From an uncultured Clostridia bacterium (GTDB taxonomy: Bacteria; Bacillota; Clostridia; TANB77; CAG-508), in the NCBI GenBank assembly GCA_947584805.1, contig CANPWU010000004.1, positions 13,098-77,097 of the forward strand: a stretch of DNA of 64,000 nt. Direction: 5' to 3'. Shown piece by piece: positions 1,823 through 5,820 of this stretch. The notes beneath the pieces were generated by a model. The model saw only the letters and a list, made by a program, of their open reading frames with translations. It ran no database searches and had not been told where the DNA came from. Each line of letters begins with the position of its first letter. Within the stretch, counting starts at the first letter, position 1. A program made the translations under genes and the position numbers.

Positions 1823-2728
1823 ATGAGGAGAAAATTAAAAAAGTTTTTAAGCAAAAAATTACCACTTATGATTTTTTTACTTTTAATATTTTTATATATG
1901 TTCATGGCTTATGGATATGCAATACTAAAAACTGATTTTAATATAAATGGAAGTGTAAGTATTAATAGTCAAGTAGAAAAATGGAGACCTAAATTAAAAT
2001 TTGTAAAAATAAGTCAAATAGAAAATGTATTTTTCTATGAAATTACTATTGAAAATGATTCAAGATTAACTTGCTATGAATGGAAATTGAAAATAGAAGA
2101 TACAGAATATATTTCTTTCCCATTTGGAATTGACGCGGTAAGAGAAGATAACTCATGGGTATTAAATAATACTAAATGGGATAGTCGAATTGAACCAGGA
2201 GGAACAGTTATTTTAAATATTACTTTTCAAGTAGATTTAAATTTAAGTAATTCGATGACACCTGAAGAATACGCAAAGTATTTTACCAGAAACCATATTA
2301 CAATATCTGCAAATACTAAAGAAGAAGTAGAAAGAGAAGGAACAATTATTACAAATGGAAATGCAACACTTACTTTGAATGAAAATGAGGAAGAGTTAAA
2401 AGATTTTAAAATTGAAAAAAATATTAACTATAAACCTGAAACTGAAAATGAGAAACAATATATTTTAACTATTTATAATAATTCGGATAAAGATTATTAT
2501 AGAATTAGGGTAAATATGTATTTAGAAAATATTGTTTTAAAAGAAATATCTCCAATTGAAGTTATATGTAATAATATAAATAGCATAACATTTAAAGTAG
2601 CTAGAGATGTAGAGCTAGAAAGAAATAAAGCAGTATCTGTATATATTACAATTATATCTGAGGACGATAATTTTGCCCGGAGATTTAATAATTGCAGCAA
2701 GTTTATGAAAAAAAAAACAGTTTACTAA
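1823..2728 (+). CDS. Secreted/anchored protein with a SipW-cognate-like N-terminal signal (basic N-region, hydrophobic core, AYGYAILKTDFNINGS)
   Basis: 301-aa ORF with an AGGAG RBS. Its N-terminus resembles that of the 2976 gene. The C-terminus is uncertain (see findings). Confidence 0.45.
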   Translation: MRRKLKKFLSKKLPLMIFLLLIFLYMFMAYGYAILKTDFNINGSVSINSQVEKWRPKLKFVKISQIENVFFYEITIENDSRLTCYEWKLKIEDTEYISFPFGIDAVREDNSWVLNNTKWDSRIEPGGTVILNITFQVDLNLSNSMTPEEYAKYFTRNHITISANTKEEVEREGTIITNGNATLTLNENEEELKDFKIEKNINYKPETENEKQYILTIYNNSDKDYYRIRVNMYLENIVLKEISPIEVICNNINSITFKVARDVELERNKAVSVYITIISEDDNFARRFNNCSKFMKKKTVY

Positions 2729-2755
2729 CTATTAAAAGTTTGTAAACTGTTTTTT
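2718..2755 (+). terminator. Rho-independent terminator (stem cagtttac/gtaaactg, T6)
   Basis: 8-bp stem, 16-nt loop and TTTTTT directly after the stop codon of the 1823-2728 gene. Confidence 0.5.
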
Positions 2756-2791
2756 ATCTAATAGAAATTTCTCCGAAATTTCTATTAGATA
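2755..2791. repeat. Perfect 17-bp inverted repeat (tatctaatagaaatttc-tcc-gaaatttctattagata)
   Basis: Read directly from the sequence. No U-tract follows on either strand. Confidence 0.8.
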
Positions 2792-2975
2792 AAAATGGCT
2801 AAACGCAGCCTTTGAGATTTTCTCATTTCATTCGGAAACTCAAATCGGCAAGAACAAAGAGCGTCGAGGCGCTTTGTTCACATACCAAAAAAATTTACAT
2901 ATAATAAATTAAGCATAAATAGATTATTTTCAAAATTAAGCTGAAACTTTTATGCTAAGTTAAGGGGGCAAAAAA

Positions 2976-3470
2976 TTGAAAAGCAAAAGAAATATTATAA
3001 TTTTAGCAGTATTAATTGTAGTAGCATTAATGGCAGTAGGCTATTCAGCATTTGCTACTCAACTAAATATAAATGGAACTGCAACGATTGCAGGTGAATG
3101 GAATGTTAAAATAACAAAAATAGAAACTGAAGAAATAAGTGACGGATGTGATGATGGAGATCCTGAATATACCAATACTACAGCAACTTTTAATGCAACA
3201 CTAAAAAAACCAGGAGATATAGTAACTTATAAAATAACTGTACAAAATGCAGGAACAATTGATGCAACATTAAGTACGGCAAAATTTACTCCAGACGAAG
3301 AAAATGGATCGCCTGCAATTATTTATACGACGACAAGACCTAGTGAAACATTAACTGCAGGAAGCGAAACAACATTTACAGTAACAGCAAAGTATGATGA
3401 AACAACAGAAACCGTACCAGAGATTAAAACAAAACAAATAACAGGAATTATAGAATATGTACAAAAATAA
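2976..3470 (+). CDS. SipW-cognate-class secreted protein (TasA/camelysin-type signal peptide: KSKRNIIILAVLIVVALMAVGYSAFATQLNINGTA); Thr-rich mature part
   Basis: 164 aa, TTG start, RBS AAGGGGG. It lies immediately upstream of a SipW-type signal peptidase. Confidence 0.55.
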   Translation: MKSKRNIIILAVLIVVALMAVGYSAFATQLNINGTATIAGEWNVKITKIETEEISDGCDDGDPEYTNTTATFNATLKKPGDIVTYKITVQNAGTIDATLSTAKFTPDEENGSPAIIYTTTRPSETLTAGSETTFTVTAKYDETTETVPEIKTKQITGIIEYVQK

Positions 3471-3518
3471 AAATCTATTAAACAAAAGTAGGGAGGGAGA
3501 CCTCCCTATATATAAAAG

Positions 3519-4664
3519 GTGACAATTATGCGATATCTAAAAAATAAAAATATAATAATAATTTTAGTAGTATATATATTCGCAGAAATAATTCTGCAGG
3601 TAAAGAATTATTCACTCTATATAAATATAAATCCTATATTTTGGGGAATAATACTTGCTTATTTAATTTATGAGATAAAAAGAAATTATATTAGATTTAA
3701 TACAGATAGAAAACATTATAAATATATTATTATAATTATAGTTTTGCATGTTTTGGCTTATATATATTTAGGAAATACTTTCGGATTTTCAAAAAGTCCA
3801 TACAAACATGAAATTATACCAATATTAAAAAATGCTTTTCTAATGATATTTCCTATAATCAGCATTGAGATTGCAAGAGGTGTATTTGTAAATAGGAATA
3901 AAAATAACAAACTAGCAATAGCAGGAATAACAGTATTACTTATATTAGCACAAATAAATTATTATTTATTAGTAAATTTTAATTTGAATAAAGAAGGACT
4001 TTTTAAATATATTTGCGGAGAAATCTTACCGCTTACTTCATACAATATTTTATACACATATTTAGTATTAAAAAGTTCGTATTTAATTACAATTATATTT
4101 AGAGTTTTTATTAAATTATTATTATTACTTTTACCAATACTAGCAGATTTAGATTGGTTTATGCTTGGAACATTTGGAATCATACTACCAGTGGTGATAT
4201 ATATATTATTTAAATATATATTTAATAAAGAGAAGGAAGCAAAAAAGAAATATACTATTTTTGCTAAAATTAGCTATATATTAACCCTTTCCTTATGCAT
4301 AATTTTAACTTGCTTTATGCTGGGAATGTTTAAATATCAAGCAATAACAATACTTTCTAATAGCATGGATCCTATATTTGGCCCAAGTGATGTTGTTATT
4401 TATAAAAAACTAGAAAAAAACAATTTACAGGAAATTCAAGTAGGAGACATTATAATTTATAGTGTAGAGAACCAAAACATCGTTCATCGTGTTGTGGATG
4501 TAATAGAAGAAGATGGAGTAATTAAATATCAAACTAAAGGTGATAACAACAATACACCTGATAGTAAGTTAGTTGATATAAGTCAAATTAAAGGAATATA
4601 TTTGTTTTCTATAAAATATTTCGGACTTCCGTCTGTTTGGTTATATGACATTTTCTATAATTAA
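3519..4664 (+). CDS. sipW: Signal peptidase I, SipW (Sec11/archaeal) type. The catalytic domain is the C-terminal ~130 aa, fused to a ~250-aa N-terminal polytopic membrane domain.
   Basis: C-terminal catalytic motifs are present: 'LSNSMDP' (Ser box), 'GDIIIY' and 'VHRVV' (His). The N-terminal region has about 7 hydrophobic segments. Confidence 0.6.
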   Translation: MTIMRYLKNKNIIIILVVYIFAEIILQVKNYSLYININPIFWGIILAYLIYEIKRNYIRFNTDRKHYKYIIIIIVLHVLAYIYLGNTFGFSKSPYKHEIIPILKNAFLMIFPIISIEIARGVFVNRNKNNKLAIAGITVLLILAQINYYLLVNFNLNKEGLFKYICGEILPLTSYNILYTYLVLKSSYLITIIFRVFIKLLLLLLPILADLDWFMLGTFGIILPVVIYILFKYIFNKEKEAKKKYTIFAKISYILTLSLCIILTCFMLGMFKYQAITILSNSMDPIFGPSDVVIYKKLEKNNLQEIQVGDIIIYSVENQNIVHRVVDVIEEDGVIKYQTKGDNNNTPDSKLVDISQIKGIYLFSIKYFGLPSVWLYDIFYN

Positions 4665-4737
4665 GAAGTAAAAGTATAAAAGGTTAGAAAATTATGTGTG
4701 CGCTTTCGAGCAAAGCAAGAAAGGAATGTAATCTATA

Positions 4738-5820
4738 ATGAAAAAGAAAAGAAAATATAGAAGCATAACTAAGAGAAGTTATTCAGCAAAAAATAATAAA
4801 TTATATATTATTATTTTTTCTTGTATAATTATTTTTATAATAGGAGTGCTTTTTATAAAATTAGGCATTGATGAGAGAAAAAATGTAGAGCCAGAATACA
4901 CATATACTAAAGAAAAAAGTAGTAACTATGAAGTTTTGTTAAAGCCAAACGATTTTTATGAGACTACAAGTCTTCCATCTAATCTTTATTATGCTTCAAG
5001 GTCAATTGATAATTTTAATATAAATTTCAAGTATGATTTTAAGGGAAGTAAAGAAACTAATTTAAGTTGTAGCTATAATGTAACAGCAGAATTAATAGGA
5101 TACGCAAATGATAAAAGTGGTCAAAGTAAAGAAGTATGGAGTAGAACGTTTGATATTGCTCAAAATAAAGATATTCAGCAAAGTTATATAAAGGAATTTT
5201 CAATTGAACAAGATGCTATCATAAATTATGAAACATATAATAATTTAGTACATTCATATGAAGAAAAGTATGGAATATCAATAGATGCTATTTTAAAAGT
5301 ACGCTTAAATGTATTTTTAAATCTTCTTGATTTTAATAAAAAGGAAGCGGAAGATTATATAGAACTAGATATACCAATAAACAGTACTGTAACAAATGTA
5401 GAAGAAAGATATGAAAACAAAATCATAGATAGCATCGGTTTACAAAGTAAAAATCTTAATACTAAAGAAGCTGTATATTATATAGCAGGTACAGTGTTTG
5501 CTTTAGGAGCAATTGCAATAGCTATAATTAATATAAGAAAAAGTAAAATTGAAGAAACATTAGAAGATATGTATGAAAAAAATATAAATAAAATTTTAAA
5601 ATATTATGGCGATTTAATTGTAACAGTAGATAATAATCCGGATTTAAGTAATTTGCAAGCATTAAATATCACGACTTTAGATGATTTAATAGATGTAGCA
5701 GAACAAAACAAAGCCGTTATTATTCGCTATGAAGAATTGAAAGAAGATAAAAGTCATCTCTATGTGATTGTAGATAAATATGCCTATATTTATGAAGTAA
5801 CAGCTGATGAATTAAAATAA
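4738..5820 (+). CDS. Hypothetical bitopic membrane protein (TM at ~aa 22-42 and 247-268), last gene of the SipW cluster
   Basis: 360-aa ORF. It has a basic N-terminus followed by a hydrophobic span. Confidence 0.4.
   Translation: MKKKRKYRSITKRSYSAKNNKLYIIIFSCIIIFIIGVLFIKLGIDERKNVEPEYTYTKEKSSNYEVLLKPNDFYETTSLPSNLYYASRSIDNFNINFKYDFKGSKETNLSCSYNVTAELIGYANDKSGQSKEVWSRTFDIAQNKDIQQSYIKEFSIEQDAIINYETYNNLVHSYEEKYGISIDAILKVRLNVFLNLLDFNKKEAEDYIELDIPINSTVTNVEERYENKIIDSIGLQSKNLNTKEAVYYIAGTVFALGAIAIAIINIRKSKIEETLEDMYEKNINKILKYYGDLIVTVDNNPDLSNLQALNITTLDDLIDVAEQNKAVIIRYEELKEDKSHLYVIVDKYAYIYEVTADELK

Follow-up and report, generated by a model that had tools for sequence, protein, structure and literature searches.

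We analysed a 64-kb stretch of DNA from an uncultured Clostridia bacterium (positions 13,098 to 77,097 of contig CANPWU010000004.1; the whole stretch of 64,000 nucleotides is called the window below). Four co-directional genes at positions 1823-5820 encode two putatively secreted proteins, g301 and g164, a polytopic signal peptidase I and a DUF5305 protein, g360. We consider it fairly probable that this cluster is an AbpX-type system of the TasA superfamily, which builds a thin surface fibre by donor-strand complementation. Profile comparisons place g164 in the AbpX branch of the TasA superfamily, with the AbpX system as the closest one described. AbpX of Pyrodictium abyssi belongs to the TasA superfamily and forms fibrils by donor-strand complementation (PDB 9SJ2, 9RHP; 10.64898/2026.01.04.697558). 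The four genes had been pointed out in an earlier note on this DNA, and their open reading frames (ORFs) sit exactly where it had located them:

1823-2728, + strand: g301, 301 residues, from the ORF list
2976-3470, + strand: g164, a 164-residue precursor with a TTG start and a GGGGG Shine-Dalgarno sequence
3528-4664, + strand: signal peptidase I, 378 residues (381 residues from the GTG at 3519)
4738-5820, + strand: g360, the DUF5305 protein, 360 residues

Sequence and predicted structure of g164

The g164 precursor can be divided into three parts:

2976-3047, + strand: residues 1-24, a predicted Sec-type signal peptide (hydropathy; helix in the structure model)
3048-3089, + strand: residues 25-38, the candidate donor strand A-F-A-T-Q-L-N-I-N-G-T-A-T-I (conservation; alignment to AbpX)
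3099-3467, + strand: residues 42-164, a CARDB-like/immunoglobulin (Ig)-like beta-sandwich core (Pfam; AlphaFold2 model)

The signal peptide begins with the basic residues K2, K4 and R5, which are followed by a hydrophobic stretch at positions 7-22 (hydropathy). The core contains a PGD...N-x-G-T-I-x-A motif, ends in E-Y-V-Q and gives a marginal match to the Pfam family CARDB (25.6 bits, cut-off 22.7) as well as sub-threshold matches to DUF7507 and DUF11. The AlphaFold2 (AF2) model has a predicted local distance difference test score (pLDDT) of 90 and consists of a helix (residues 2-25), an unstructured segment (26-43) and a beta-sandwich (44-163), whose six main strands reach pLDDT values of 95-98. 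In agreement with the earlier note, g164 is rich in threonine (18.3%) and no enzyme motif was seen in the domain scans. The length of 164 residues that had been assigned to the mature protein is that of the precursor, and the mature form would comprise approximately 137-140 residues.

The cleavage site was placed by alignment to AbpX (TYA↓QW) and TasA (WA↓AF). We infer that g164 is probably cut after G22-Y23-S24 (G-Y-A in g301), the site most consistent for both paralogues; an alternative is cleavage after A25-F26-A27 (A-F-A↓T). Phenylalanine would stand at mature position 2 only if cleavage follows GYS. Mature g164 (residues 25-164) has a calculated isoelectric point (pI) of 4.35 and 15.0% Asp+Glu.

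In a search for close relatives, 174 proteins matched g164 at E<=0.001, of which the best 120 are 57-97% identical and mostly 162-165 residues long; none of the members of this close family carries a name. A wider scan of 1.84 billion cluster representatives with HMMER returned 6830 proteins at E<=1e-3, of which 2708 also pass E<=1e-10. Single-domain proteins of about 165-190 residues are frequent among them, and so are proteins of 300-870 residues in which the N-terminal module is followed by further domains. Of the superfamily clusters, ten were looked up, and none of these has a name.

g164 is a remote relative of the archaeal fibre protein AbpX

The AbpX sequence was taken from the preprint supplement and combined with four database relatives to a five-sequence set. 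With this set, hhalign gave 92.3% (E 5.5e-7, 144 columns) for the g164 family (profile A1) and 96.6% (E 4.9e-10, 153 columns) for the 48-sequence g164 profile (A5), while A5 reached 95.4% with the single AbpX sequence. The value was 90.4% after removal of the signal peptides on both sides and 85.6% for the core only. The homology at profile level spans the signal peptide, the donor strand and the core. Since only profile-profile comparison finds it, the kinship of g164 and AbpX is remote (about 24% identity, no match at BLAST or HMMER level). A PDB sequence search with profiles A1 and A5 returned noise only (E>=0.3).

The two proteins also resemble each other in general character. AbpX-like proteins have a pI of about 4 and about 15% Asp/Glu (10.64898/2026.01.04.697558), values close to those of mature g164, and both carry an amphipathic N-terminal strand, with phenylalanine at position 2 in g164 and leucine in many of its relatives. 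Mature g164 is shorter, with about 140 residues as compared to the 163 of AbpX. In archaea and Bacillota, abpX loci encode a signal peptidase I with ten transmembrane (TM) helices, a DUF5305 "peptidase accessory" and AbpX-like minor subunits, and some of the bacterial loci additionally carry LPXTG anchors and sortases (10.64898/2026.01.04.697558). The g164 cluster likewise has a polytopic peptidase of about 380 residues directly downstream of the subunit gene, a DUF5305 gene and a paralogous, putatively minor subunit. It differs in having no SLH or LPXTG anchor and no kinase or cyclic di-GMP (c-di-GMP) gene, and its host is a mesophilic gut anaerobe, unlike P. abyssi.

The earlier note had compared the cluster to the TapA-SipW-TasA logic of Bacillus biofilm fibres, transplanted into a clostridial genome. 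The kind of system was recognised correctly, namely secreted subunits, a dedicated peptidase of the endoplasmic reticulum (ER) type and a membrane accessory, whereas the assignment to the TasA and SipW families did not hold. Neither g164 nor g301 matches the TasA/camelysin family (PF12389, Peptidase_M73; TasA itself is NF046066 in NCBIfam) at E<=0.1; a weak match was found in 5 of 48 g164 relatives (best E 6e-4). The N-termini of both proteins had been described as characteristic SipW-cognate signals; the TIGR04088 check was run, and neither gave a match at E<=10. The same applies to AbpX, while TasA of Bacillus subtilis, which served as positive control, scores 38 bits in the same library (cut-off 19). 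Rather than a transplanted Bacillus system, the cluster represents a broadly distributed archaeal and bacterial module.

In the structure predictions, which the earlier note had suggested for both proteins with a TasA/camelysin jellyroll in mind, g164 and g301 appear as Ig-like/CARDB-like beta-sandwiches with an unstructured N-terminal strand, and the likeness to the TasA fibre is weak. In the Foldseek list for g164, 8aur (TasA fibre) ranks fifth and 7pnb (Sulfolobus 0406 thread) seventeenth, with E values of approximately 0.02-0.05, and CfaB, FimG and FimI were also among the matches.

We regard it as very improbable that the cluster is a true operon of TasA/camelysin, SipW and TapA with TIGR04088-class signals. 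Its gene logic is indeed like that of B. subtilis tapA-sipW-tasA (8AUR), in which secreted beta-sandwich subunits adjoin a Ser/His ER-type peptidase and an accessory paralogue-like protein is encoded. Moreover, g164 and TasA (sequence verified against 8aur) share an LKPGD...N-x-G motif and reach 53% over 58 columns in hhalign with A5, and predicted mature g164 starts with Ala-Phe, as mature TasA does. Against such an operon stand the absent Peptidase_M73 and TIGR04088 matches, a score of the peptidase with the SipW equivalog model NF046067 of only 66.1 bits (cut-off 190), its extra polytopic domain of about 250 residues, the DUF5305 gene, which is foreign to the Bacillus operon, and a different gene order.

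g301 is a paralogue of g164 with a second Ig-like domain

In both proteins, a basic N-region leads into a hydrophobic helix, after which comes GY(S/A)-x-(F/L)-x-T-x-(L/F)-N-I-N-G. This shared N-terminal architecture, noticed earlier from the letters alone, reflects homology and not chance, since hhalign aligned the g301 family (profile of 18 sequences) to the g164 family at 91.7% (E 7.9e-7; g301 residues 16-139 on g164 residues 7-141), and since the other gene is the sole cross-match of each family hidden Markov model (HMM) among the six-frame ORFs of the whole window (E 3.4e-7 and 1.7e-9). Beyond these two, the window showed no paralogue of either protein, nor any of the peptidase.

The AF2 model of g301 has a pLDDT of 74, with values below 50 at residues 37-49 and 285-301. 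It comprises a TM/signal helix (2-36), a disordered strand region and two Ig-like sandwiches (57-137 and approximately 159-280). Foldseek matched it to proteins with tandem Ig-like domains, such as integrin calf domains and transglutaminase barrels. In the proposed fibre, g301 would most likely act as a minor component, sit at the tip or the base, or nucleate assembly; TapA and the "AbpX-like minor components" are loose analogues.

The last 17 or so residues of g301 depart from the family consensus ...NFxPDIVLAAEI through a frameshift of one base, both in the window and in its three closest relatives. The shift follows ...DDNF (window 2660-2728; relatives L087:1090-1200 and L088:2300-2420), and the tails in the 0 frame result in proteins of 301, 303, 311 and 390 residues. 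The +1 frame still reads (P/I/L)GD(L/I)(I/V)IAASL (...PGDLIIAASL* in the window), and the position of the stop codon is kept (TGA, TGA, TAG). A sequencing error was rejected as the cause because three independent assemblies carry the same shift, which could be left over from a recent frameshift or mark a site of recoding. In L087 (253-1425), a low-coverage relative, the shifted g301 ORF of 390 residues extends, in another frame, into the intact g164 gene (1304-1795), and because of this overlap the gene caller overlooked g164 there. The DUF5305 gene of L087 is in two pieces.

A candidate donor strand is the most conserved part of the putative subunits

The conservation of the putative donor strand was determined among 48 diverse members of the g164 family. 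Position 26 is F or L in 100% (F in 27 of 48, L in 20 of 48), L30 is likewise found in 100%, I32 in 98%, glycine at position 34 in 96%, A36 in 81% and I38 in 96%. The hydrophobic residues strictly alternate (i/i+2), with polar positions between them. The strand of g301 follows the same amphipathic pattern, L35-x-x-x-L/F39-x-I41-x-G43-x-x-x-I47. In both proteins the segment is the most conserved part, yet lies outside the fold in the AF2 monomer models.

Monomer predictions leave the AbpX strand W2-I12 unstructured; in the fibril, W2, L6, L8, A10 and I12 are buried in the groove of the neighbouring subunit (10.64898/2026.01.04.697558; PMC12518558). These five residues align to F26, L30, I32, A36 and I38 of g164, respectively. 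The g164 strand is two residues longer due to an insertion, N33-G34, that includes the near-invariant glycine. A further difference concerns Ca2+: AbpX E4, an acidic position conserved in AbpX-like proteins, binds Ca2+ (10.64898/2026.01.04.697558; PMC12518558), whereas the equivalent position 28 of the g164 family is T in 25, Q in 14 and S in 6 of the 48 members. Ca2+-triggered assembly of g164 is therefore not to be assumed.

A strand might also be donated and then fixed by intermolecular isopeptide bonds, as in the "exchange and lock" of BsaA. In Clostridium perfringens, BsaA depends on the adjacent SipW-type peptidase and polymerises by strand exchange (PMC7395162, PMC11580942), and its isopeptide bond connects Asn35 and Lys74, catalysed by Glu56 (PMC11580942). 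The sipW-bsaA-bsaB-bsaC locus is similar in that a clostridial matrix protein of the TasA superfamily is encoded beside a SipW-type peptidase. Two g164 relatives (P0148, P0191) faintly match the BsaA model TIGR04090 (E 1e-3 to 0.015), and N33 in the strand as well as K78, K153, D81 and E160 are invariant or nearly so in the close family. However, g164 itself does not match this model at E<=0.1, its relatives reach 15-19 bits as compared to a cut-off of 60, and in the wider family N33 is present in only 30 of 48 members and K78 lies outside the consensus. The g164 cluster also has no VWA protein and another peptidase architecture. A BsaA-type lock appears quite improbable, and as no family-wide conserved triad is evident, we rejected it.

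A polytopic Ser/His signal peptidase and its putative DUF5305 partner

The peptidase matches TIGR02228, the model of archaeal/ER-type signal peptidase I, with 82.7 bits (cut-off 51.85). Two parts can be distinguished:

Residues 1-250, + strand: membrane domain with 8-9 hydrophobic helices, by hydropathy only
Residues 251-378, + strand: S26 catalytic domain of the ER/archaeal type, with Ser279 at 4362-4364 and His320 at 4485-4487

S279 (within SNSM), H320-R321, G338-D339-x-N341 and D345 are invariant in 16 homologues, which indicates the Ser/His chemistry of SipW and Sec11 instead of Ser/Lys. The start codon is more likely the ATG at 3528, which lies behind AAAGGTG and results in the 378-residue length of the homologues, than the listed GTG at 3519. 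The previous classification as a SipW-type signal peptidase was thus right as to the ER/archaeal class and wrong as to SipW proper. SipW proper has about 190 residues and two TM helices, while the enzyme of the cluster is twice that size and carries about nine TM helices, all N-terminal, on which the earlier note is silent. The polytopic domain belongs to no Pfam family, as determined by scanning the 16 homologues.

Directly downstream of P. abyssi abpX lies a gene for a 380-residue peptidase with nine hydrophobic peaks followed by the catalytic domain. The catalytic domains of the window and P. abyssi enzymes are 33% identical and colinear (positions 231-345 and 241-347; E 5e-14; hhalign 97%).

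The last gene had been described as encoding a bitopic membrane protein. According to hydropathy, g360 has two TM segments (17-48 and 244-268), with about 195 residues between them on the outside and a tail of about 90 residues on the inside. It matches PF17231 (DUF5305) with 49.8 bits (cut-off 29) over profile positions 1-217 of 217. This agrees with the published layout of DUF5305 proteins, in which two TM helices go with a beta-sandwich on the outside and a domain in the cytoplasm. For Tafi and abpX loci, such proteins have been proposed to act as partners of the dedicated signal peptidase, to which they are sometimes fused (PMC11821415, PMC12337348, 10.64898/2026.01.04.697558). By analogy, g360 is a candidate accessory subunit of the peptidase.

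The haloarchaeal Tafi system (TafA/TafE pilins, TafD and the DUF5305 protein TafG), which we compared by description, also combines a signal peptidase I and DUF5305 with adjoining donor-strand pilins. TafD is required for the processing of Tafi pilins, as shown genetically (PMC11821415, PMC12337348). In contrast to the g164 cluster, Tafi pilins carry twin-arginine translocation (Tat) signals, and TafD has four TM helices and an extra C-terminal domain.

Conservation of the cluster across genomes

In a scan of one genome per species, 309 stretches with relatives were found, and the best 80 are almost all from rabbit-gut metagenome-assembled genomes (MAGs) of uncultured Clostridia and Bacilli. 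Of 85 related loci searched with tblastn, 77 contain the peptidase and 71 contain DUF5305, whose gene immediately follows that of the peptidase in every case. The order is always subunit - (g301) - peptidase - DUF5305, and most of the loci without peptidase or DUF5305 are cut off by a contig edge shortly after the subunit gene. Homologues of g301 occur in 24 of the 85 loci, nearly all of them between the g164 and peptidase genes; only in the clade of the window and in locus L007 is g301 upstream of the g164 gene. Tandem g164 paralogues were found in 8 of the 85.

Relative to the closest relative, the ratio of nonsynonymous to synonymous substitution rates (dN/dS) is 0.07 for g164, 0.09-0.15 for the g301 core, 0.22 for the peptidase and 0.22-0.40 for DUF5305, all of which indicate purifying selection. 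Since its core is under purifying selection, g301 is functional.

A different organisation of subunit paralogues may exist around one relative, P0119 (175 residues; L003:5272-12093, L004, L005), which lies in an array of small ORFs of 79, 217, 148, 175, 232, 140, 245 and 164 residues without Pfam matches, and no polytopic peptidase was detectable. In one relative (L001:2055-4382, L002:350-2677), a 568-residue protein with a Flg_new_2 domain and a sortase are encoded 2.6-4.3 kb upstream of the subunit-peptidase-DUF5305 module, with thyX and rusA between the sortase region and the module.

That the cluster builds a sortase-assembled or a type IV pilus is hardly credible at all. Its subunits are small and secreted with N-terminal hydrophobic helices, as such pilins are, and the sortase in L001 stands 2.6 kb upstream; however, g164 and g301 have no LPXTG, no C-terminal anchor and no G↓F-T-L-I-E prepilin motif. 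The cluster encodes no prepilin peptidase, ATPase or sortase, and its dedicated enzyme is a signal peptidase I. Both kinds of pilus were excluded on account of the g164 and g301 sequences and the cluster content.

The g164-type module also occurs in larger proteins. We define it as a signal helix, a strand of the pattern F-x-T-x-L-x-I-x-G-x-A-x-I and a CARDB-like sandwich with Y-V-Q at its end. In hundreds of proteins, 300-870 residues long, the full module stands at the N-terminus, and behind it come leucine-rich repeats (LRR, BspA-like), repeats of the DUF285-like kind, the module once more or still other domains (for example P0141, P0150, P0152, P0197, P0210, P0249 and P0273, also in L089-L091). 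The family comprises at least 6,800 clusters at 50% identity from gut and other anaerobic Firmicutes, and its long members are encoded all over the genome. All module proteins might conceivably be substrates of the peptidase/DUF5305 pair and co-polymerise by strand donation, with the nine-helix domain serving as assembly platform and more than an anchor. This would amount to a general, chaperone-free "signal-peptidase-I pilus" of gut Firmicutes with interchangeable adhesins, an idea that we put forward tentatively and with considerable doubt.

Proposed assembly of the fibre

Our preferred explanation, an AbpX-type fibre, would proceed as follows. As the major subunit, g164 would be exported by the Sec pathway, and its N-terminal helix would keep it in the membrane for a short time. 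The Ser/His peptidase (3528-4664), probably together with the two-pass DUF5305 protein, would cut it at the outer face of the membrane, probably after Gly22-Tyr23-Ser24. This would free the amphipathic strand A25-I38, with F26, L30, I32, G34, A36 and I38 on one face, and the strand would enter the open beta-sandwich of the next subunit without the need for a chaperone or usher. The predicted product is a thin, acidic surface fibre. With the same signal/strand module and a second Ig-like domain, g301 would join as a minor, tip, base or nucleating subunit.

Several observations weigh against this explanation. Plain hmmsearch with the g164 profiles misses both TasA and AbpX, even though the latter (9sj2, 9rhp) is present in the PDB set. 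The Foldseek matches to donor-strand fibres are weak (E 0.02-0.15, TM-score 0.25-0.38) and are surrounded by generic Ig-like folds such as adaptin ears; AbpX is outside the top 50, although its presence in that library is not established. Part of the similarity between g164 and AbpX could be due to a common sandwich of the CARDB/DUF11 type. The membrane domains of the two peptidases have no significant similarity (hhalign 0.5%), and the acidic Ca2+-binding residue at strand position 4 is replaced in the g164 family. Two human-gut contigs, which encode the long P0249 and the single-domain P0170, contain no such peptidase or DUF5305 within 8 kb, and therefore the module may serve uses other than fibre building. 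Finally, what the data establish are homologies, domain architectures, catalytic residues, gene order and purifying selection; every later step is an inference, namely the cleavage site, the pairing of peptidase and DUF5305, polymerisation through a donated strand and the part played by g301.

The main alternative is that g164 and g301 are monomeric, non-polymerising CARDB/Ig-like surface or secreted proteins. The conserved segment would then be a first strand or a recognition tag for the peptidase, or the helix would be kept as an anchor, and the locus would be a processing module. Generic CARDB, DUF11, DUF7507 and Ig-like models do match the g164 core, the top Foldseek matches are generic Ig-like domains, the same N-terminal module heads hundreds of long LRR/DUF285-like proteins that resemble ordinary adhesins, and at least two module proteins are encoded away from any such peptidase. 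Yet g164 is homologous over its full length to AbpX, a demonstrated donor-strand polymer, and its most conserved stretch is precisely the one that AF2 leaves out of the monomer fold. Furthermore, tandem and accessory paralogues lie within the cluster, as in pilin loci, and the presence of a dedicated peptidase speaks for the helix being removed. On balance, we judge monomeric proteins unlikely and favour the donor-strand fibre.

Transcription signals and flanking genes

The four genes had been called an operon. Several elements between them make a single operon uncertain:

2712-2755, + strand: terminator-like hairpin that overlaps the g301 end (fold -18 kcal/mol, z -5.7), with UUUUUU as its U-tract
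2877-2905, + strand: promoter-like site TTCACA-17-TATAAT, 70 nt upstream of g164, by consensus match only
3488-3509, + strand: stem-loop between the g164 stop codon and the peptidase start (-16.6 kcal/mol, z -3.9)

The promoter-like site matches 11 of 12 consensus positions and has the top score in the region, and g164 may be expressed separately from, and more strongly than, the rest of the cluster. The stem-loop 3' of g164, UAGGGAGGG-AGAC-CCUCCCUA, has no U-tract on the + strand; speculatively, it may act as an attenuator or RNA-stability element that sets the ratio of subunit to enzyme. A search with Rfam over 1500-6900 returned no riboswitch or leader at E<=1, and therefore no c-di-GMP switch lies upstream of g164. 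On the entire window, Rfam found one tRNA and nothing else.

A structured stretch of 117 bp (2756-2872) separates the g301 terminator from the promoter-like site of g164 and forms three hairpins (-46.7 kcal/mol, z -7.4), including a near-perfect palindrome of 35 nt. It is missing from the two closest relatives and single-copy in the window, and a 33-mer of it had no match in the metagenome collection.

The cluster is flanked by nitroreductase and radical-SAM genes upstream and an unknown minus-strand gene downstream, which are unrelated to the module and not conserved beside it in related loci. The radical-SAM protein (30-977) shows a sub-threshold likeness to RaSEA of archaeosine biosynthesis (TIGR01210, 70 bits, cut-off 212), which is unusual in a Firmicute and unconnected with the fibre cluster. 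Just downstream, at 6883-12572, several housekeeping-looking genes are broken across reading frames: an rRNA-methyltransferase-like gene (6883-7359 / 7307-7645), ruvB (7672-8430 / 8423-8677), a polytopic membrane protein gene (8735-9694 / 9720-10283) and a penicillin-binding protein gene (10336-10506 / 10511-11050 / 11199-12572). Either indel errors in the assembly or gene decay account for these splits. In contrast to these genes, all four genes of the cluster are full-length.

Discussion

The kind of system to which we assign the g164 cluster is already known: bioinformatic work has described it in Bacillota, together with the peptidase and DUF5305 as partners, and the structure of the archaeal prototype is solved (10.64898/2026.01.04.697558). 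The locus is therefore a new example and not a new kind. In the searched literature we found no report of the size of the subunit family, the N-terminal module on long adhesin-like proteins, the prevalence in an uncultured gut lineage or the loss of the Ca2+-binding Glu, nor of any experimentally characterised bacterial AbpX-type system. To our knowledge, TasA/CalY and BsaA are the only bacterial cases of the TasA superfamily that have been studied experimentally so far.

Fibres of the TasA superfamily are emerging as a cross-domain route to chaperone-free biofilm matrices and pili. The AbpX-type version, consisting of a subunit, a polytopic Ser/His peptidase and DUF5305, is frequent and highly conserved in an uncultured lineage that predominates in collections of rabbit-gut MAGs. 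The family defined by the g164 module is very large and has neither a name nor a Pfam model, and its recognition would improve the annotation of thousands of "hypothetical" surface proteins. As a compact cassette of four genes, the cluster is suited to asking how a peptidase with a large membrane domain and DUF5305 couple cleavage to fibre assembly, whether a strand can be donated when the Ca2+-binding Glu of AbpX is lacking, and which role such fibres play in gut colonisation.

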